Shown here: positions 8,993-16,619 of the stretch, one piece after another
How the letters are laid out: every line of letters starts with the position of its first letter
How positions within the stretch are numbered: position 1 is the first letter of the stretch
Origin: Eubacteriales bacterium
Lineage (GTDB): Bacteria; Bacillota; Clostridia; Oscillospirales; CAG-272
DNA length: 64,000 bases
Direction of reading: 5' to 3'
Assembly (NCBI GenBank): GCA_045544735.1
Contig: JAZPZM010000077.1
Span: forward strand, 971-64,970
Position numbers and translations under genes: made by a program
Notes under the pieces: model-generated
Database searches by the model: none
What the model was told of the DNA's origin: nothing
The model's input: only the letters and a program-made list of their open reading frames with translations

Positions 8993-9005
8993 AGCCAACA
9001 CAAGT

Positions 9006-9029
9006 CAAGGGGTGAACGAAACGTTCACC
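9006..9029. repeat. Hairpin repeat CAAGGGGTGAACgAAACGTTCACC (family H1)
   Basis: 23/24 identical to 13197-13220. Confidence 0.8.
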
Positions 9030-9127: not shown

Positions 9128-9976
9128 TTAATCTCGTCCGCTGAACACCTTCATGGTGGTCAAAGCGTTCTCCTTCATAGCATTCTGAACGTTCAGGGCA
9201 AGGTTGTGGTAGAAATCCGCTTCCTTGTCTGCAACCGTTCTTCTTGCTTCAGCATAGCCTGCATAGGATAGATATGAGTAATAATTGATTTTGTTTATAC
9301 CTCGCGCGATAACCTCGCGATATTCCTCGTGGGAAATACCGCTTCCGCCATGCATGACAAGGGGCAGATCGGTGTATTGGCGAACCTGCGTGATGATATC
9401 CATGTTCAATACGGGCTTGGTTTGGTATATACCGTGCGCTGTACCAAAGGCAATTGCCAAAGCGTCTATCCCCGTGCTTGCAAGAAATTCAGGCACAAGC
9501 GCAGGGCGCGTGTAAAGATCGGCGGGATCGGTAACCGTGCTCTCTCCGCCGCCCTCTCTTTGAGGAAGCGCCCCAAGCTCTGCCTCTACGTCTACACCGT
9601 GAGCGTGTGCGTAATCCACCACTTCCTTAGTTCCAATTACGTTTTGCTCATAGGGGAGAGTGGAATAGTCGATCATAACAGAAGTAAATCCCAAATCAAT
9701 AGCGCGTTTGCAATATTCAAAATCCTCGCCATGATCAAGATGTACGCACACCTTTACGCCGCTGCGCTTAACAAGCTCGACCATCACGGGTCCGATCTTG
9801 TCAAGGCGTGATACGCTCTCGTGGCATTGAGCATGAGCAATGATAACGGGAACGTTTAGCGTTTCCGCCGCATCCAAAACCGCAAGCAAGCATTCCAAAT
9901 TAGGCGTGTTAAAGCTACCAACGGCAATATTTTGCCTTCTGCCCTCGGCAATTACGTCTTTAAGTCCTACTAACAT
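9128..9976 (-). CDS. Class II ketose/fructose-bisphosphate aldolase family protein
   Basis: 282 aa. Motifs NIAVGSFN, VPVIIAHAQ, VHLDHG, LAIAFGTAHG and VMHGGSG are typical of the class II aldolase family. Confidence 0.85.
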   Translation of the reverse strand: MLVGLKDVIAEGRRQNIAVGSFNTPNLECLLAVLDAAETLNVPVIIAHAQCHESVSRLDKIGPVMVELVKRSGVKVCVHLDHGEDFEYCKRAIDLGFTSVMIDYSTLPYEQNVIGTKEVVDYAHAHGVDVEAELGALPQREGGGESTVTDPADLYTRPALVPEFLASTGIDALAIAFGTAHGIYQTKPVLNMDIITQVRQYTDLPLVMHGGSGISHEEYREVIARGINKINYYSYLSYAGYAEARRTVADKEADFYHNLALNVQNAMKENALTTMKVFSGRD

Positions 9977-11377: not shown

Positions 11378-12240
11378 TTAAGCAAGCTCCTTTACAAGTT
11401 TATAAATTTTTTTGTATTTTTCGTATTTTCTCTCGTACGCACCCGATGGGGCGGGGGAGAAATGCTTGGTGTAGCGCGTAAATATCTTTCGCGCATCTTC
11501 AAGTGTAGCTATACCGCCAATCGCAACCGATTGAAGCATAGCACAGCCGCACAGACCTGATCGTGAGAGCCAAGCACAAGAAGCGCGGGAACGTTCCATT
11601 CGGGCTTTAGCTTTCCAACGATACTGCCCGCTCGCATCGGAGTAGAGAATAGGGATTTGTTTATTCCGAAGCGCCCCAAGACCTCATCCGAGAATTGCAT
11701 AGCTCTGATGTCAAATGCCCCCGTTCTCGATGCTAAGGCATAGTCTATCACGCGCTTACCCGTGAGCAGATAACCGATGTAATCACCGATAAGCATTACC
11801 TTGTGCGCTTTTGAAAACACGTCAGGCGCATGGCGCTTGATCCACAAAAGCTTTGATAGCGAATACATGCTGTGCGGCACGACACCCGTGATGAGAAACG
11901 CCCTTTCCTCACCGATGGCGGACTTGATCTCCTCCGCTTCCTCCTCGCCGCGCGTGTCGGTGTAGAGCATGGGGTGAAAAAGAATCCTGTCATTCTCATC
12001 CAAAAGTACGAAGGACTCTCCGAGCGACGAGATGCAAATAGATGAGATGTCAAAGTCTCTCGATATCTCCTCTATCATCTCGCGCAAATGACCTTCGATA
12101 GCCGAAACGTCGACGTAACTATCGCCGTCTATTATCTTGAACGCGTATTCCCTGAATAAATATTTTATTATATCTCCATTTTCGGAGAACAACTGACACT
12201 TACAACCAGTTGTGCCAACATCTATGCTCAAATAAGTCAT
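11378..12240 (-). pseudogene. FGGY-family sugar kinase, internally deleted and frameshifted
   Basis: The N-terminal domain is intact (MTYLSIDVGTTGCKCQLF ... GSHDQVCAA) and then stops at 11509. A second frame (11599-11378) encodes only the extreme C-terminus (GCAMLQSVAIGG...YEKYKKIY). The total span is 863 nt, whereas a full-length FGGY kinase needs about 1.5 kb. Confidence 0.8.
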
Positions 12241-12336
12241 TTTCTGCTCCTTTTTTATTATTCTACTTGATTTTTTGCTTGAATTATAGTATTATTTATA
12301 TAAAAGTATGGTAATTTTGTATGAGGAATTACGAAT

Positions 12337-13173
12337 ATGTCAACATTTGATTTTGATGCCCTAAAACAGCTTTTATATGATTTTTATACCTTGACTAATA
12401 TCAAAACCTGCCTTTATGATTCCGAGGGGAACGAGCTTTGCTACTATCCTACGAAATTCAGCGGCTTTTGCGAGATTTTGCGCAAGGATGGGAAAATGGA
12501 CCTGCGTTGCAAGGACTGCGATAAGCACGCCTTTGCGGAGTGCAGAAAAACGCGCAGTCAATATAGCTATACCTGCCACGCGGGCTTACGGGAATGTCTG
12601 TCGCCCATCATTTACAACAATCACATCATCGGCTTCATGATGATAGGTCAGATCAAAAATAACGGCACAGATATCGCAGAACTGGAGAAAGAGCTTCCCG
12701 AATATTTGAGAAGCAAGTTGCGCGCAGCATACGATAGTTTGCCTACCATTTCTGAAGAAAAGTTGATTTCAGCATTTCGTATTTTAGATGCCTGCACAAA
12801 CTACGAACGTTTGAAAACCATGGTAGAACTCTATAACGATCCAATCGAAGCGCAAATAGACAAATATATCTACGAAAATCTTTCAAAGCCGCTGTCCGTA
12901 TCCCATCTATGTTCGCACTTCCATTTGTCGCATTACGAGATATATCAGATATGTAACGAATATTTTTGCGCAACACCCGCCAAGCACATAAAGAATTGCA
13001 GACTCGCATACGCATGCAAGCTGTTGGCGACCACGGATTTTGCCGTGAGCAAGATCGCGTTGCTTTGCGGCATCGAGGATTATAATTATTTTTCAAAGCT
13101 ATTCAAAGCCACTTACGGTATCAACCCCACGGATTACAGGAAAAACAATATCGCTTCCTCTCGCGTGGATTGA
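12337..13173 (+). CDS. AraC-family transcriptional regulator with N-terminal PocR sensor domain
   Basis: Cys-rich PocR-like N-terminus (FCEILR...RCKDCDKHAFAECR...YTCHAGL...IGFMMIGQI). C-terminal AraC HTH (ACKLLATTDFAVSKIALLCGIEDYNYFSKLFKATYGINP). Confidence 0.85.
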   Translation: MSTFDFDALKQLLYDFYTLTNIKTCLYDSEGNELCYYPTKFSGFCEILRKDGKMDLRCKDCDKHAFAECRKTRSQYSYTCHAGLRECLSPIIYNNHIIGFMMIGQIKNNGTDIAELEKELPEYLRSKLRAAYDSLPTISEEKLISAFRILDACTNYERLKTMVELYNDPIEAQIDKYIYENLSKPLSVSHLCSHFHLSHYEIYQICNEYFCATPAKHIKNCRLAYACKLLATTDFAVSKIALLCGIEDYNYFSKLFKATYGINPTDYRKNNIASSRVD

Positions 13174-13180
13174 TTTTTAT

Positions 13181-13283
13181 TATACCTACACACAAACAAG
13201 GGGTGAACTAAACGTTCACCCCTTGCGGTTTGATATATTACGGTTTAACGATGGGTGGAAAAAATGTCCATGCACAATTCGAC
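13181..13283. repeat. Module copy A (shortened): -10 remnant, hairpin H1, conserved box
   Basis: ATTATACC remnant at 13181-13190. Hairpin CAAGGGGTGAACTAAACGTTCACCCCTTG at 13197-13225. Box TTTAACGATGGGTGGAAAAAATGTCC...CAATTCGAC at 13244-13283. Confidence 0.7.
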
Positions 13284-13313
13284 ATGCTTGGGAAGTTGTG
13301 ATTCGGCATAGCT

Positions 13314-13886
13314 TTAATCACTATCAGCAATACGAAGTCCTTGCATTTTCGCGGCGTATTTCAACTCATATACCGTATCTGTCTCGCTTGCATTTGAGAT
13401 GCTGTGCAGCTCTTTTTTGGCATCTTCCATGGAAGCATAAAAACCAAGCAAAGTCCGCTTGTTAATTCCGAAAACGCCTTTTGAAATTCCATAAAGCGCA
13501 CACGTCGGAACTTTTACTTTTTCATTTGCTTTAGTCAATCCCGTAATTAAAGTGGCTTCGCCGTTGGTGCTGATAGTTTCAATTGAAAATTCTTCAAACG
13601 TTGATATCTTTCTCTTGTTAATATCAATGATATATAGTTTTCTCGGAATACGAATATCTTGCCGAACAGGTTGAGTGGATTGCGATATTTCCTCATCTTT
13701 AATAAGATAATCGGTAGAAACTTCAAACAGTTCGCTTATAAGCGAGAGCTTTTCAATGTCGGGAGCGCTTGCTCCGCTTTCCCATTTTGATACTGCCTGT
13801 CGGGATACTTCTAATTTTTCTGCAAGCTGTTCTTGGGACAGCCCCTTGCTTTTTCGTAACTGTTGAATCTTTACAGAAATACTCAT
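13314..13886 (-). CDS. XRE-family HTH protein with uncharacterised C-terminal domain
   Basis: The HTH (LRKSKGLSQEQLAEKLEVSRQAVSKWESG) is typical of XRE regulators. AAGGAAG lies 7 nt before ATG 13886. Confidence 0.8.
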   Translation of the reverse strand: MSISVKIQQLRKSKGLSQEQLAEKLEVSRQAVSKWESGASAPDIEKLSLISELFEVSTDYLIKDEEISQSTQPVRQDIRIPRKLYIIDINKRKISTFEEFSIETISTNGEATLITGLTKANEKVKVPTCALYGISKGVFGINKRTLLGFYASMEDAKKELHSISNASETDTVYELKYAAKMQGLRIADSD

Positions 13887-14032
13887 AATGAAGCTTCCTT
13901 TCAAAATTAGTATATGGCTATTTTAACCTGTAACGAGCATAAAGTCTACCACTAAAACGTGGAATAATGTCAACTGATGGTTGCATTTCTGCCATATTGT
14001 TTGAAAATCAAGTTTTGCGGATTGTTTTTACG

Positions 14033-14158
14033 AACTGATTATACCACAAACCGCCACGAAGCGCAACTGCTTTTATACAAGAAAAGGGGAGAACAAATTG
14101 TTCTCCCTGTATCACAGTTCAACGATGGGTGGAAAAAATGCCCTCCCATAATTCGGTC
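14033..14158. repeat. Module copy B (~125 bp): minus-strand promoter, hairpin terminator, conserved box
   Basis: About 87% identical by eye to 14815-14941. On the - strand it reads: box, then GGGAGAACAATTTGTTCTCCCC+TTTT, then TTGCGC-17-TATAAT (14066-14038). Confidence 0.85.
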
Positions 14159-14183
14159 TGTTTGAAAAATGAAATTTGCGTGA

Positions 14184-14783
14184 TCAATTGTCTTTCTTGA
14201 TCCAAAACTTGTTTCCCAAATATCTACAAACTTTTTCTTTATATTCGATATACTCTTGACCAAAGGCTTCTATCAGAAAAGATTCTTCCACGTTTACAAT
14301 TTGCAAATGGAACAATCCTACGGCAAAGGCTGTTGCAAACATCAGATACCAATTGAAGAAAGCGCACAGGATACCGATATACATTAAGTCAAATCCCAAA
14401 AAAGCGGGGTTACGACTTATTGAGTAAATTCCAGTAGTGACAAGGCTTGTTTTCGCCTCCCGTTGAACGCCCGCTCTCCAATTGTCTTTCATTTCAGCTA
14501 CCGATGCAATAAAAGCTATGATGCCGAATGCTTCAACAATAACGCCCGCGATCTGCATCGGCAAAGGTATGTTTTCAAAATAAAACAGGATGCTGACGAT
14601 TTGTATTATAGGGAGAATATATGTTGTAATTTTCAGGGCGATCTCAATGAATTTTAGAAAACCTTCTTTTCCTTTTCCGAGTTGGTCAGTGTGTATTCCT
14701 CGCCTTTTTTGACTGATCATTTTGGAAAAATAGCAAATATAAAATATTAACATCAATCCCAAGGCTATAATTTTTAGAGCCAT
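14184..14783 (-). CDS. Isoprenylcysteine carboxyl methyltransferase (ICMT/PEMT) family membrane protein
   Basis: Multi-TM protein with the SRNPAFLGFDLMYIG motif typical of the family. GGAGGG RBS precedes ATG 14783 (MALKIIALGL). Confidence 0.8.
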   Translation of the reverse strand: MALKIIALGLMLIFYICYFSKMISQKRRGIHTDQLGKGKEGFLKFIEIALKITTYILPIIQIVSILFYFENIPLPMQIAGVIVEAFGIIAFIASVAEMKDNWRAGVQREAKTSLVTTGIYSISRNPAFLGFDLMYIGILCAFFNWYLMFATAFAVGLFHLQIVNVEESFLIEAFGQEYIEYKEKVCRYLGNKFWIKKDN

Positions 14784-14814
14784 TTTATTTCGCCCTCCAA
14801 ATTCGTGATTTACT

Positions 14815-14941
14815 AATTGATTATACCATAAACCACCGCGAAACACAACTGCTTTTATACAAGAAAAGGGGAGAACAAATTGTTCCCCCCTATATCACAG
14901 TTCAACGATGGGTGGGCAAAACGCCCAGTCATAATTTGGTC
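14815..14941. repeat. Module copy C (~125 bp): minus-strand promoter for the ICMT gene, hairpin terminator, conserved box
   Basis: On the - strand: TTGTGT-17-TATAAT (14848-14820) sits upstream of ICMT. Hairpin GGGGGGAACAATTTGTTCTCCCC+TTTT. Box at 14900-14941. Confidence 0.85.
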
Positions 14942-15079
14942 AGCCAATGCGAGATGGCGCGGAGAAGGGAATACAGTTTTAAAGTCCAACTAAAAAACAT
15001 TCAAAACTGTGAAAAAATTTCACAGCCTACACGCTTCAACTCGCATATCAGAAATACGCCGTTTATTCAAGAATAATGA

Positions 15080-15117
15080 ACCACCGCCGAGAGCGATCGT
15101 TTGGTTGCTCTCGTCGG
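15080..15117. repeat. Hairpin repeat (family H3) beginning ACCACCGCCGAGAG
   Basis: The 14-mer at 15080-15093 is identical to 16134-16147. Stem CCGCCGAGAGC/GCTCTCGtCGG. Confidence 0.75.
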
Positions 15118-15134
15118 TAAAATTTTACACATAT

Positions 15135-15163
15135 ATTATACCACAAAATCGGTAAAAAATCAA
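15135..15163 (-). promoter_or_regulatory. Orphan sigma-A-type promoter (TTGATT - 17 - TATAAT, TG-extended) firing into an ORF-free stretch
   Basis: The - strand reads TTGATTttttaccgattttgTGgTATAAT. The -10 region (GTGGTATAAT) matches those of modules B and C. Confidence 0.55.
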
Positions 15164-15166
15164 GTC

Positions 15167-15195
15167 TTGTATTTGCATAATCAATGTGTTATAAT
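15167..15195 (+). promoter_or_regulatory. Promoter for the methyltransferase gene (TTGTAT - 17 - TATAAT with TGt extension)
   Basis: Read directly from the sequence. It is divergent from the orphan promoter. Confidence 0.6.
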
Positions 15196-15224
15196 TTATC
15201 AAATCAAAAAAGGAGTGCTGTCAG

Positions 15225-16124
15225 ATGATTTTGAATGCGTTGGATGAAGTTTTGTTTTGGGATGATATTGATGTCTTAAAGACCTTTACAAAGCAGAATT
15301 GCGATAGATTTTATCCACATGATTTTGAAAATTACCATAAGAATCAAGAATCGTTTTTCAAGTCGGTTATCCCCAATAAAGCAGAATTCATTCGTCGATT
15401 AGAAAGCTATGCAAATGTTGGACAGCCTTTTTGGATTTCGGGTAGGAATAAGCTTAGTGATGATATTGATGCAAATTCGATGATTAAGGCTATTTCTGTA
15501 AGTTCTAAAATCGATAATGGAGAACAAAAAGCCAAACAAGCGTCAAAATGGCAAAAAAACAATCCTTCGTTTTGGAAATTCTACACGAATAATATCCTAC
15601 ATCAACAAGAAAATCGTATTCTTGAACTCACGATAGGCGCGGGCGGTGGAACGAATGCGGTTATGAGAGAAATGACACATCGTGACTATTATATGGGTGT
15701 TGATATAGATTTTGTTTGTGCAAAAAACGCTGACGCTCTCGCTAAATATTATAATATAAACGGTTTAGGTATTGCTACATCGTTATGGAAATTGCCTTTT
15801 GAAGATTGCATGTTTACATCGGTTTGTAGTAATGCAGGATTAGAAGAATGCCGAGAAATACCTACGATCATAGAAGAAGCATATAGGGTATTAATGCCCG
15901 GAGGTAAAATCGTTTTGCATTGTTTGAACACTAATAAAATGCAAGCGTATGCAAGATTTGAACAATACGGTTTCTCCGAAAAAGAAATGATATATTGGGC
16001 AAAGCAAATAAGAATGTACACATCTGCTGAAGGTGTCGAAGAACTGTTGAGCACCGTTGGATTCGAATTTTACAAGCGACTGATGGATGAAAAATTAGGT
16101 AGCATTCTCGTATTTGAAAAATAA
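15225..16124 (+). CDS. Class I SAM-dependent methyltransferase with ~130-aa unknown N-terminal region
   Basis: Motif I ILELTIGAGGGTN, motif II MGVDID, and VLMPGGKIVLH. AGGAG lies 9 nt before the ATG. Confidence 0.75.
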   Translation: MILNALDEVLFWDDIDVLKTFTKQNCDRFYPHDFENYHKNQESFFKSVIPNKAEFIRRLESYANVGQPFWISGRNKLSDDIDANSMIKAISVSSKIDNGEQKAKQASKWQKNNPSFWKFYTNNILHQQENRILELTIGAGGGTNAVMREMTHRDYYMGVDIDFVCAKNADALAKYYNINGLGIATSLWKLPFEDCMFTSVCSNAGLEECREIPTIIEEAYRVLMPGGKIVLHCLNTNKMQAYARFEQYGFSEKEMIYWAKQIRMYTSAEGVEELLSTVGFEFYKRLMDEKLGSILVFEK

Positions 16125-16133
16125 ATATATAAC

Positions 16134-16173
16134 ACCACCGCCGAGAGTAACTAAATGATTACCCTCGGCGGTG
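16134..16173 (+). terminator. Hairpin H3 copy, likely terminator of the methyltransferase gene
   Basis: 10-bp stem CACCGCCGAG/CTCGGCGGTG plus an inner GTAA/TTAC pairing. The following T-run is weak. Confidence 0.5.
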
Positions 16174-16251: not shown

Positions 16252-16619
16252 TGGTGGAGGCGAGGGGAATCGAACCCCTGTCCGAAAATCTCTTGATACA
16301 GCTTTCTCCGGGTGCAGTCGGTTATTTAAAATTCCCCTCGTCAGACGAAAGCCGACATTCTTCCGATTTGGGTATCCTTTTTCTGCGTGACTGCCTCAAA
16401 GGATAAAGGGCAATGCACGTTCATCGCTACATGACGCCCAACATCGGGGCCGCGATACTCCCCGCGTGGACGGGTGACCTTACAAGGTCACGTCACAGCT
16501 TACGCTGCGTATGCAAGATTATTATCTGCGTTTAATTTTAAAGGTGAACCGTTTAAAGAGTTGCTCAGCTCTACCCGCTTACCATACCTCAAAATCCCCG
16601 TCGAAACCTTTACGCCCCC
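16252..16619 (-). ncRNA. ssrA: tmRNA (SsrA)
   Basis: On the - strand the 5' end is GGGGGCGTAAAGGTTTCGACGGGG and the 3' end is GGGGTTCGATTCCCCTCGCCTCCACCA. The tag reading frame GCAGATAATAATCTTGCATACGCAGCGTAA (16529-16500) encodes ADNNLAYAA*. Confidence 0.95.

Follow-up and report, generated by a model that had tools for sequence, protein, structure and literature searches.

In integrons, the gene cassettes are mostly promoterless and are accompanied by an adjacent intI tyrosine integrase gene, an attI site and a common promoter, Pc. The attC repeats that separate the integron gene cassettes of Vibrio cholerae are about 125 bp long, and an attC site contains an inverse core site R'' (RYYYAAC) and a core site R' (GTTRRRY), which constitute an imperfect inverted pair 50-150 bp apart. 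To our knowledge, integrons are essentially unknown in gut Clostridia. Phage morons, described by Hendrix and colleagues (reviewed in PMC3594210), are autonomous promoter-gene-terminator units of deviant GC content, scattered in prophage operons and unrelated to one another in their promoters and terminators. Putative mobile promoters (Nijveen, Matus-Garcia and van Passel, PMC3575422) are a descriptive category that requires 46 or more of 50 non-coding bases to be identical ahead of genes that are not homologous, and Correia elements, MITEs, ERIC and REPIN are named in the same paper as promoter-bearing intergenic repeats. The minimal mobile elements of Neisseria (Saunders and Snyder, 2002, as cited in PMC1797815) are, as far as that citing paper summarizes them, alternative small gene sets found at one syntenic site.

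The locus described here belongs to an uncultured gut Eubacteriales species and was analyzed in a 64-kb stretch of DNA (the window, meaning the whole stretch) together with contigs from related strains. We propose, as a probable although far from certain reading, that a small strain-variable array of single-gene cassettes directly downstream of ssrA is punctuated by a lineage-restricted terminator-promoter junction module of ~140 bp, which would make captured genes autonomous and provide the homology for gain, loss and exchange of cassettes by RecA-type recombination. In the ssrA direction, the intrinsic terminator of the module would stop the upstream transcript and, ~20 nt past it, a TG-extended -10 promoter (TTG-17-TGnTATAAT) would restart transcription, so that a gene between two modules would be expressed on its own, regardless of its neighbors. 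Since every junction contains this 140-bp sequence, it would serve also as a recombination handle.

Like phage morons, the cassettes are single genes whose GC content deviates from the surroundings; each has a promoter and a factor-independent terminator to itself (here predicted), and their occurrence among relatives is patchy. Unlike morons, they form a chromosomal array beside ssrA in which one homologous junction is reused, and no phage structural or lysogeny genes lie beside the array in the window. As in the putative mobile promoters, near-identical non-coding sequence is found upstream of non-homologous genes: the module copies B and C, upstream of the XRE-190 and ICMT genes described below, are identical over 40 consecutive nt and have 50-nt windows in which no more than two positions differ, which places them within that definition. 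The module differs from this category in adding an upstream terminator and a box, in standing at every array junction, and in the population evidence for cassette exchange at the array. With the minimal mobile elements, in the summarized form in which they are cited, the locus shares the alternative gene content at one syntenic site and, presumably, exchange by homologous recombination without an element-encoded enzyme, which in those elements would follow transformation; in that account the homology lies in flanking housekeeping genes, whereas here it lies in an internal repeated module, which would allow gain or loss of a single cassette.

If the proposed reading is true, the module would be a natural plug-and-play expression adaptor, which protects an inserted gene from transcription arriving from upstream and supplies it with a strong promoter, and strains would swap genes via ordinary recombination at the module with no element-encoded enzyme required. 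In gut Clostridia, gene content could in this way vary by simple means, and 'promoter reuse', so far only a statistical description, would gain a concrete mechanism. The module is also a candidate compact terminator-promoter part for Clostridia engineering, and could act as a marker for small accessory cassettes beside ssrA in metagenomes.

Results and Discussion

The Cassette Locus in the Window

The array adjoins the 3' end of ssrA and is poor in GC, with a content of 0.35-0.40 across positions 12000-16000 compared to ~0.48 in the flanks. The homology of five related strains to the window ends exactly at position 16252, the 3' end of the tmRNA gene ssrA (16252-16619, minus strand), which suggests that ssrA anchors a variable cassette locus. 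The array has ssrA, smpB and housekeeping genes as neighbors on one side, and a PocR/AraC-type regulator gene and an FGGY kinase gene on the other; the convergent regulator gene (12337-13173, plus strand) forms the distal boundary of the island both in the window and in the contig L001. Two cassette genes are bracketed by module copies on the minus strand, namely a gene for a 199-aa membrane methyltransferase of the PEMT/ICMT family (14184-14783, between copies C and B; hereafter ICMT) and a gene for a 190-aa XRE-family HTH protein (13314-13886, between copies B and A; hereafter XRE-190). A 299-aa class I SAM methyltransferase gene (15225-16124, plus strand) also belongs to the variable island, and related hairpins lie on either side of it (16136-16173 and 15080-15118). 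Between the stand-alone promoter P4, described below, and the box of copy C, there is a gene-less stretch (14940-15134, minus strand) with hairpins at 15118-15080 and 15028-15004, which is also present in contig L012 and may represent a cassette without a gene or give rise to a small transcript; its interpretation as a decayed hydrolase gene was rejected, as neither tblastn nor blastn gave a signal. Exact-sequence look-ups of the XRE-190, AraC/PocR and methyltransferase proteins of the window returned no record.

Anatomy of the Module

Three related copies of the module are found on the minus strand of the window: A (13181-13290), B (14027-14164) and C (14809-14947). A preliminary description had placed them near 13181, 14033 and 14815, and the repeat search recovered all three at about these positions, as the families 13236-13290, 14110-14164 and 14893-14947 and as a 90% identity over 81 nt between 14027-14107 and 14809-14889. 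By gapped global alignment, B and C are 84.2% identical over their full extent (14027-14164 and 14809-14947) and 87.4% identical (111 of 127 positions) over the limits used in the preliminary description, whose estimate by eye was about 87%. The box core, CCACCCATCGTTRAACYGTRATA, occurs three times in the 64 kb (0.00 expected from 100 shuffles), and the terminator-to-promoter junction, CTTGTATAAAAGCAGTTGYGYTTCG, occurs twice in the window (0 expected).

On the minus strand, the module is composed of a box of ~45 nt, a G-rich hairpin with a U-run and, in B and C, a promoter of the form TTG-17-TGnTATAAT. In copy C, the box (14939-14891) is followed by the terminator stem (14890-14868), the U-run (14867-14861) and the promoter (-35 TTGTGT at 14848-14843, TGn at 14828-14826 and -10 TATAAT at 14825-14820), and then by a shared leader, GTAAATCACGAATTTG, and the ribosome-binding site of the ICMT gene. 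Copy B presents the same succession, with the box at 14156-14108, the terminator stem at 14107-14087, the U-run at 14085-14079 and the promoter elements TTGCGC, TGn and TATAAT at 14066-14061, 14046-14044 and 14043-14038, respectively, after which comes an XRE-specific leader of ~150 nt. Copy A, which stands at the array end, contains a box (13282-13236), a 12-nt insert, a variant terminator stem (13226-13196) with the arms GGGGTGAAC and GTTCACCCC, and a U-run (13195-13187). The earlier claim that box, terminator and promoter are all present in each copy thus stands for B and C, while in copy A it holds for the box and the terminator and fails for the module promoter. The TATAAT of copy A (13184-13179) aligns with TGTATAAAAG, just past the U-run of B and C, and not with their -10 element, and transcription from it would enter the convergent AraC/PocR gene at the 3' end.

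Predicted Terminator and Promoter

Terminator-like hairpins were called by a consensus scan at 14107-14087, 14891-14867 and 13226-13196, with folding energies of -13.8, -17.3 and -24.0 kcal/mol, respectively, and z-scores of -3.8 to -6.6 against shuffles. Across 13 copies, 95.4% of the stem cells are paired and three of the ten pairs have changed on both sides, a pattern that indicates that the stem is maintained through compensatory substitutions. The -10 element TGnTATAAT is identical in all 12 promoter-bearing copies. Both the B and C promoters have a 17-nt spacer and a TG at -15/-14, and direct reading of the sequence reproduced exactly the coordinates 14066-14038 and 14848-14820 previously assigned to them. 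They were missed by a simple sigma-70 scan because their -35 hexamers are weak and match the consensus at only three of six positions. The scan did call the fourth promoter that had been proposed, P4 (15135-15163, minus strand), as TTGATT-17-TATAAT with a TG (TTGATT-17-TGGTATAAT). P4 stands alone and adjoins, in divergent orientation, the promoter region of the methyltransferase gene on the other strand; around the -10 and the start it is akin to B and C (80% identity over 25 nt; repeat family D4). Sites resembling TTTGTGGTATAAT number 12 in the window against 1.8 expected, and one of them is directly upstream of smpB, which suggests that this is the usual promoter form of the organism.

As judged from these features, the module probably acts both as a terminator and as a promoter. 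The earlier idea of insulated expression cassettes agrees with this anatomy, and the compensatory changes in the stem among 13 copies and the invariant -10 in 12 argue in its favor.

The Box

The box is as conserved as the functional parts of the module, although the junction-module model does not explain this conservation. The most economical reading is that it is a 3'-UTR sequence which extends the homology, and its role is putative. The possibility that it is a coding relic or a small ORF was discarded, since the frame is broken by changes of T-run length in the copies L017_1 and L012_2; module-spanning ORFs had no homologue among 5.8 billion proteins, and a phmmer search against 1.84 billion representatives retrieved only two irrelevant repetitive matches.

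A different explanation is that the box and the terminator together form a cis-regulatory RNA or protein-binding element that regulates read-through between cassettes; candidate roles are those of a conditional terminator or anti-terminator, of an element in the 3'-UTR that affects stability, and of an operator to which the XRE proteins of the island would bind. Consistent with this, every full copy has the box directly ahead of the terminator, the C-rich segments of the box could, as judged by eye, act as competitors in pairing with the G-rich 5' arm of the stem, XRE-family genes are recurrent as cassettes, and most copies allow a putative box hairpin (AUG..UGG / CCA..CAU), in which 80.5% of cells are paired. 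Nevertheless, in the compensatory test of the aligned copies no pair of this hairpin had changed on both sides, and its stability was no better than that of shuffles (z -0.06 to -1.4). The length of the T-run varies and the minimum free energy folds differ between copies; moreover, the two elements occur separately, since L006_up keeps the box without the terminator and L010_1 keeps the terminator without the box. Rfam, run at gathering and at permissive thresholds, passed only tmRNA, and the best scores on the module were far from threshold (SSRC38, 24 bits with a cutoff of 80; DapZ, 22 bits with a cutoff of 56). We regard a regulatory element of this kind as unlikely.

Copies and Cassettes in Related Strains

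The preliminary description had allowed for there being no further copies anywhere, in which case the repeat would be a locally duplicated stretch that lacks functional architecture. By nhmmer and alignment, 14 further copies were found in contigs of related strains, and they share the order of box, hairpin, U-run, -35, TG and -10. Partial copies resemble array ends: the copies at the end of an array are box and terminator only (window copy A and L001_A), and those at the start are terminator and promoter, or promoter only (L010_1, L020_up and P4). At least seven unrelated genes are flanked by the module, in differing orders, namely those for ICMT, XRE-190, XRE-154, a 344-aa nucleotidyltransferase and two different alpha/beta hydrolases, and a 112-aa ORF.

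All strains have smpB-ssrA in common and then diverge. In the window and in L001, ICMT is followed by XRE-190. In L017, ICMT is absent, and a hydrolase gene (hydrolase-240) is joined to XRE-190 by a single hybrid C/B module. The nucleotidyltransferase gene takes the position of ICMT in L012, and in L020 ICMT is inserted ahead of it. L006 has ICMT followed by XRE-154 with a flavodoxin-like gene. In L023, a single cassette is found, with the module accompanying the nucleotidyltransferase gene at an unrelated chromosomal site. These arrangements bear out two earlier suggestions: that the module is portable, although within a narrow lineage only, and that recombination between copies could delete or duplicate the ICMT gene, for which L017 (gene lost), L012 (gene replaced) and L020 (gene placed differently) are natural variants. 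Each variant arrangement comes from one metagenomic contig, in some cases with a coverage of 1.4-6x, and individual contigs may contain chimeric joins at the repeat; against this, the module sequences differ among contigs, and the copy in L023 (L023_1) is only ~83% identical to the window copies.

For a simple local duplication of an intergenic region that is neither mobile nor functionally organized speak the confinement of the window copies to 1.8 kb and the lack of any copy in viral contigs, phages, plasmids and, as a weak negative, the JGI metagenome collection. However, the genes flanked by the copies are unrelated, the copies of other strains flank five further genes in differing orders, and the terminator stem is kept by compensatory changes. 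Copies within one genome are 84-87% identical, compared to ~96-97% for orthologous copies between strains, and thus appear to be old, retained paralogues. We consider a simple duplication highly improbable.

Distribution Outside the Lineage

The search of 185,579 representative genomes with a box pattern, which fits only four of the 12 known boxes, retrieved the same species (L001) and one chance match in Alistipes; the representative metagenome-assembled genome of the species had one matching stretch. Box and junction patterns gave chance matches or none in IMG/VR, and the junction pattern gave two chance, eukaryote-like matches in the JGI metagenome contigs, a collection evidently without samples bearing the species and hence a weak negative. 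BLASTN of positions 13150-15200 against phages and plasmids showed similarity only in the XRE coding region, and in the window outside the array there was no module copy except a 30-nt terminator relic. The idea that the module travels with its genes across species was rejected, because homologues in other Clostridia lack it: these are 78-84% identical (79% for ICMT in L021 and L022, 78-83% for the nucleotidyltransferase in L024 and L025) and share just ~20 nt of native 5' and 3' flank. As judged from these comparisons, portability is apparently confined to a narrow lineage.

This distribution bears on a rival origin of the module as a Correia-like or MITE-like miniature transposable element, non-autonomous and furnished with a promoter and a terminator, that has been repeatedly inserted between genes. 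Like Correia elements, MITEs, ERIC and REPIN, the module is a short intergenic repeat (about 140 bp) that can supply a promoter and a terminator-like hairpin; its predicted promoter fires outward, it lies upstream of non-homologous genes, and it occurs at a second locus in L023. In addition, the 5' flank TTTTCAAACAG..ATTATG of the post-ICMT copies loosely mirrors, by eye, their 3' end TATAATCAGTTTGTAAA. But the TTTTCAAACAG flank is the native ICMT 3'-UTR, as it is also present downstream of the module-less ICMT orthologues. When the two ends of the module were compared for inverted 12-mers, the best match had 8-10 of 12 positions and was equalled by 29-166 of 300 shuffles in four of the five copies tested and by 5 of 300 in the other, so that terminal inverted repeats do not exceed chance in four of five. 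Unlike these elements, the module shows no target-site duplications and no dispersed, high-copy pattern in the sequence available. We regard an origin as a transposable element as very unlikely.

Proposed Recombination Between Module Copies

Homology between arrays breaks at the upstream edge of the box (14941), just past the -10 (14038), within the shared leader (14798) and, between L020 and L010, in the interval from -35 to -10. The breakpoints fall at or inside modules, at varying positions. The copies have undergone mosaic and concerted evolution: the four-gamete test fails for 29 of 36 pairs of informative sites in the promoter half (65 nt), and the L001_B and L001_C copies have in common a strain-specific variant, CGCGGCTG, that is absent from B and C of the window, which points to conversion between copies within one genome. 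The promoter half would thus be a recombination mosaic with within-genome conversion.

According to our proposal, cassettes would be lost, gained, exchanged and rearranged when module copies engage in homologous (RecA-type) recombination or gene conversion, either with one another in a single genome or with DNA received from related strains; an excised circle of one gene and one module would likewise re-insert in the Campbell manner. That homologous recombination moves the cassettes is what the patterns in these alignments suggest. It accounts for the shuffling, not for the first acquisition of module flanks by unrelated genes.

Alternatively, the box could be an integron-like or SCC-like site at which a trans-acting recombinase excises and integrates circles of gene plus module, the candidates being large serine recombinases. 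These enzymes are encoded directly upstream of a cassette in L001 and beside ssrA in L015, L016 and L019. The box is conserved without an evident transcriptional role, and GTTRRRY (as GTTGAAC or GTTAAAC), which matches the integron core site, is found in most copies. The locus also resembles integron arrays in its unrelated single-gene units separated by a repeat of ~125-140 bp, with content and order variable between strains, and the L023 cassette lies at a foreign locus with the whole module on its 5' side. On the other hand, a single GTTRRRY was present in five of the six copies examined, having been lost in L023_1, and the same-strand partner RYYYAAC, expected 40-150 nt upstream, in none. 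Integrase or recombinase genes were found neither among the window genes scanned beside the array nor in the precomputed Pfam calls for the syntenic flank of L010. Unlike integron cassettes, those described here have their own predicted promoters, and the breakpoints are spread over at least four positions of the repeat, not gathered at one point. Furthermore, the box is missing from some functional junctions (L010_1 and L020_up), the four-gamete mosaic fits homologous exchange, and the recombinase element of L015 is inserted 57 nt past ssrA in a sequence unrelated to the box. Such a site is an unlikely explanation of the box. In its boldest version, which we hold to be rather improbable, the locus would be a new self-expressing cassette platform in Clostridia: the box would be the dedicated site of a trans-acting enzyme, with the serine recombinases of the ssrA locus as candidates, and circles of one gene and one module, each with its own terminator and promoter, would be captured and released in an integron-like manner. 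Within the homologous-exchange reading that we prefer, the large serine recombinases found at the locus in other strains may still make a site-specific contribution.

Finally, the box was also considered as an att scar, that is, a copy of the ssrA 3' end, and this was rejected because no second copy of that end exists in the window, as a direct repeat at the distal island border or elsewhere. This result, along with the failure to find an integrase gene near the array, also sets the locus apart from islands placed in the tmRNA gene by an integrase, which such a repeat and such a gene would mark. The upstream region in L001 carries, besides the serine recombinase gene, a SWIM protein gene and XRE genes, with nothing identifiably phage-like. 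L020 carries a partial copy of the ssrA 3' end, which is part of another element.

Anatomy of the junction module

Direct reading of the minus strand over 12800-15400 and a repeat search recovered all three related copies that the preliminary description had claimed, as copy A (13181-13290), copy B (14027-14164) and copy C (14809-14947). The estimated 87% identity of B and C was reproduced on the span first compared (111/127, 87.4%) and is 84.2% over their full extent. The box core CCACCCATCGTTRAACYGTRATA occurs at 3 sites in the 64-kb window, where 100 shuffles gave none, and the terminator-to-promoter junction twice in the window against zero expected. The hairpins described as terminators are labelled terminator-like by the scan in all three copies, and have folding energies of -13.8, -17.3 and -24.0 kcal/mol, which makes them much more stable than shuffles. 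The promoters of B (TTGCGC-17-TATAAT, 14066-14038) and C (TTGTGT-17-TATAAT, 14848-14820) lie exactly where they had been placed, both with TG at -15/-14; a simple sigma-70 scan did not list them, because their -35 hexamers match at only 3 of 6 positions. The fourth, stand-alone promoter (15163-15135) was found by the promoter scan, and its -10 and start region are common to the module (repeat family D4). Copy A fits the description only in part, since its box and terminator were borne out but the module promoter is absent.

The best-supported account is that the intrinsic terminator of the module would stop the transcript arriving from upstream, that its TG-extended -10 promoter would then restart transcription, and that homologous recombination and conversion would use the shared 140 bp as their substrate, so that cassettes could be added, removed, swapped and reordered. 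We infer terminator and promoter activity, as well as RecA dependence. This promoter form is common in the organism (12 sites versus 1.8 expected, one of them upstream of smpB). Across 13 aligned box-terminator segments, pairing in the terminator helix amounts to 95.4%, and both sides have changed in 3 of 10 pairs, as in GGGGAGAAC/GTTCTCCCC versus GGGGTGAAC/GTTCACCCC and GGGAAGGAC/GTTCTTCCC; together with the module anatomy, these compensatory changes support the proposed interpretation as insulated expression cassettes, as far as sequence can tell. In the same segments, pairing reaches 80.5% in the putative box hairpin, which has zero compensatory changes and a stability no better than shuffles; neither these structure tests nor Rfam support a box acting as a regulatory RNA or operator.

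Genomic setting beside ssrA

The array lies beside the tmRNA gene ssrA (16252-16619, minus strand, smpB just upstream), where GC drops from about 0.48 to 0.35-0.40 over 12000-16000. The interval from ssrA to the convergent gene of a PocR/AraC regulator (12337-13173) contains an opposite-strand SAM methyltransferase, the PEMT/ICMT-family membrane methyltransferase (ICMT) and a 190-aa XRE protein (XRE-190). The ssrA 3' end is not repeated elsewhere in the window, and the scan of the genes surrounding the array gave no recombinase gene. A hairpin just past the tmRNA terminator (16136-16173) recurs in diverged form about 1 kb away at 15080-15118 (72% over 39 nt), and the pair brackets the methyltransferase gene on the opposite strand (15225-16124), as though the hairpin had been duplicated when this gene was inserted. 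Downstream of the stand-alone promoter, some 190 nt lacking an ORF (14940-15134, minus strand) run straight to box C and its terminator and hold two hairpins (15118-15080 and 15028-15004). This stretch is kept in contig L012 and gave neither an Rfam match nor a hydrolase remnant; it may represent a cassette that is empty, or else a small RNA about 270 nt long.

Cassette content in related strains

A scan of 185,579 representative genomes, based on strict exact patterns like the other collection scans that came back negative, gave a single further genome with the box, the Eubacteriales MAG L001. It is 97.4% identical to the window over 13135-14941, ending exactly at the upstream edge of copy C; past 14941, the window content gives way to genes for an alpha/beta hydrolase and for a large serine recombinase of 494 aa. 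Further contigs of the species came from exact-protein look-ups with ICMT, SmpB and a 99%-identical ICMT. In five SmpB contigs the window homology ends precisely at the ssrA 3' end, and gene content 3' of ssrA varies from strain to strain. L012 shows no difference from the window as far as 14798, within the shared leader, and then carries a 344-aa nucleotidyltransferase in the place of ICMT, followed by another module. In L010, ssrA is followed by about 385 nt, a box-less terminator-promoter module and the nucleotidyltransferase, while in L020 an L010-type flank leads to a promoter-only copy, ICMT, a full module and the nucleotidyltransferase. L017 lacks ICMT and has, after ssrA, a 240-aa hydrolase, one module (5' part C-like, 3' part B-like) and XRE-190. 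In L006, window homology stops directly after the -10 (14038), and ICMT is followed by a module, a different XRE gene (154 aa) and a flavodoxin-like gene. A second MAG, L023, holds a lone cassette (box, terminator, promoter, nucleotidyltransferase, A-type terminator) at an unrelated chromosomal position that has a membrane-protein gene on one side and a sortase/pilin cluster on the other.

At least seven genes of no relation to each other are thus flanked by the module, and their order varies. The comparison set is made up of metagenomic contigs only, several of low coverage, where each arrangement was seen once and chimeric joins at the repeat are possible in individual contigs; the copies themselves differ in sequence from contig to contig. 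These contexts, with the cassette at the L023 site, support the portability proposed earlier, and ICMT occurs in nature as present, absent, replaced and repositioned, which supports its predicted deletion or duplication by recombination. A plain local duplication is contradicted by the cross-strain data.

The copy upstream of ICMT in L006 (1-40) keeps box and promoter, while its terminator hairpin is missing in full (box...GTTAATT|CCTTTTCTTG), which would make it a natural read-through variant with which to probe insulation. In L017 (2280-2866), foreign DNA encoding a small resolvase/invertase-type serine recombinase splits XRE-190 after the HTH domain, and a nest of GATGAAATCC and GGATTTCATC inverted motifs (955-1110), at least three per orientation, is found in the ssrA-hydrolase interval, interleaved with short GC hairpins in an iteron-like or cruciform-like manner.

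Evolution and origin of the module

An nhmmer profile brought the copies and part-copies to 17 in all. The 65-nt promoter half has 24 variable columns, with all four haplotypes in 29 of 36 informative site pairs. Both L001 copies carry a strain-specific CGCGGCTG missing from the window copies, which is the signature of conversion between copies within one genome. Homology between strains breaks at no fewer than four places (box upstream edge, -35/-10 interval, just after the -10, leader); partial copies at would-be array starts have the promoter alone or terminator plus promoter and miss the box, and those at would-be ends have box and terminator and miss the promoter.

The box could alternatively be the site of a site-specific cassette system, since other strains have serine recombinases at this locus; nevertheless, attC architecture is lacking, the breakpoints are scattered, the box is missing from some junctions, and the insertion point of the L015 element, 57 nt beyond the 3' end of ssrA and after CTCTTTATAA, is at unrelated sequence. 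The element's large serine recombinase gene (2177-3402 in L015, also in L016 and L019) is convergent on ssrA in these three strains, and the product is only 27% identical to the L001 recombinase. L020 bears at 225-310 a second, partial ssrA 3' end (CGCCTCCACCA plus L010-type downstream flank) preceded by unrelated DNA, which resembles an att scar left by a different element that had integrated in ssrA. A MITE is disfavoured, since terminal inverted repeats are lacking and no dispersed copies turned up in the sequence covered, namely the 64-kb window and the strict-pattern genome scan.

The closest concepts are phage morons, putative mobile promoters, integron cassette arrays, Neisseria minimal mobile elements and Correia-type repeats. 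The locus resembles a chain of morons linked by one reused junction, its mode of exchange can be likened to that of a minimal mobile element, and it falls outside integrons on their defining tests and outside MITEs on terminal inverted repeats.

In other Clostridia, the module is missing beside homologues of ICMT (79% identity) and of the nucleotidyltransferase (78-83%). These module-less homologues share about 20 nt of native flank with the cassette genes, namely an AATTTG-type sequence immediately before the ribosome-binding site and CAAATTTCATTTTTCAAACAG just past the ICMT stop codon; therefore, it was within a single narrow lineage that widespread genes came to be captured between copies of the module. 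Some copies (L001_C, L023_1) have carried a piece of the ICMT 3'-UTR to new contexts, which shows that the copies arose from each other.

A 30-nt relic, GGTGAACGTTTCGTTCACCCCTTGACTTGTG (8998-9029, minus strand), lies some 4 kb away from the array, where it follows another terminator that closes the gene at 9128-9976; it is near-identical to the A-type terminator that copy A and L023 have. Finally, the FGGY carbohydrate kinase ORF at 11509-12240 (minus strand) comprises the N-terminal domain only (243 aa), with the next gene beginning 124 nt later, and is probably truncated or a pseudogene.
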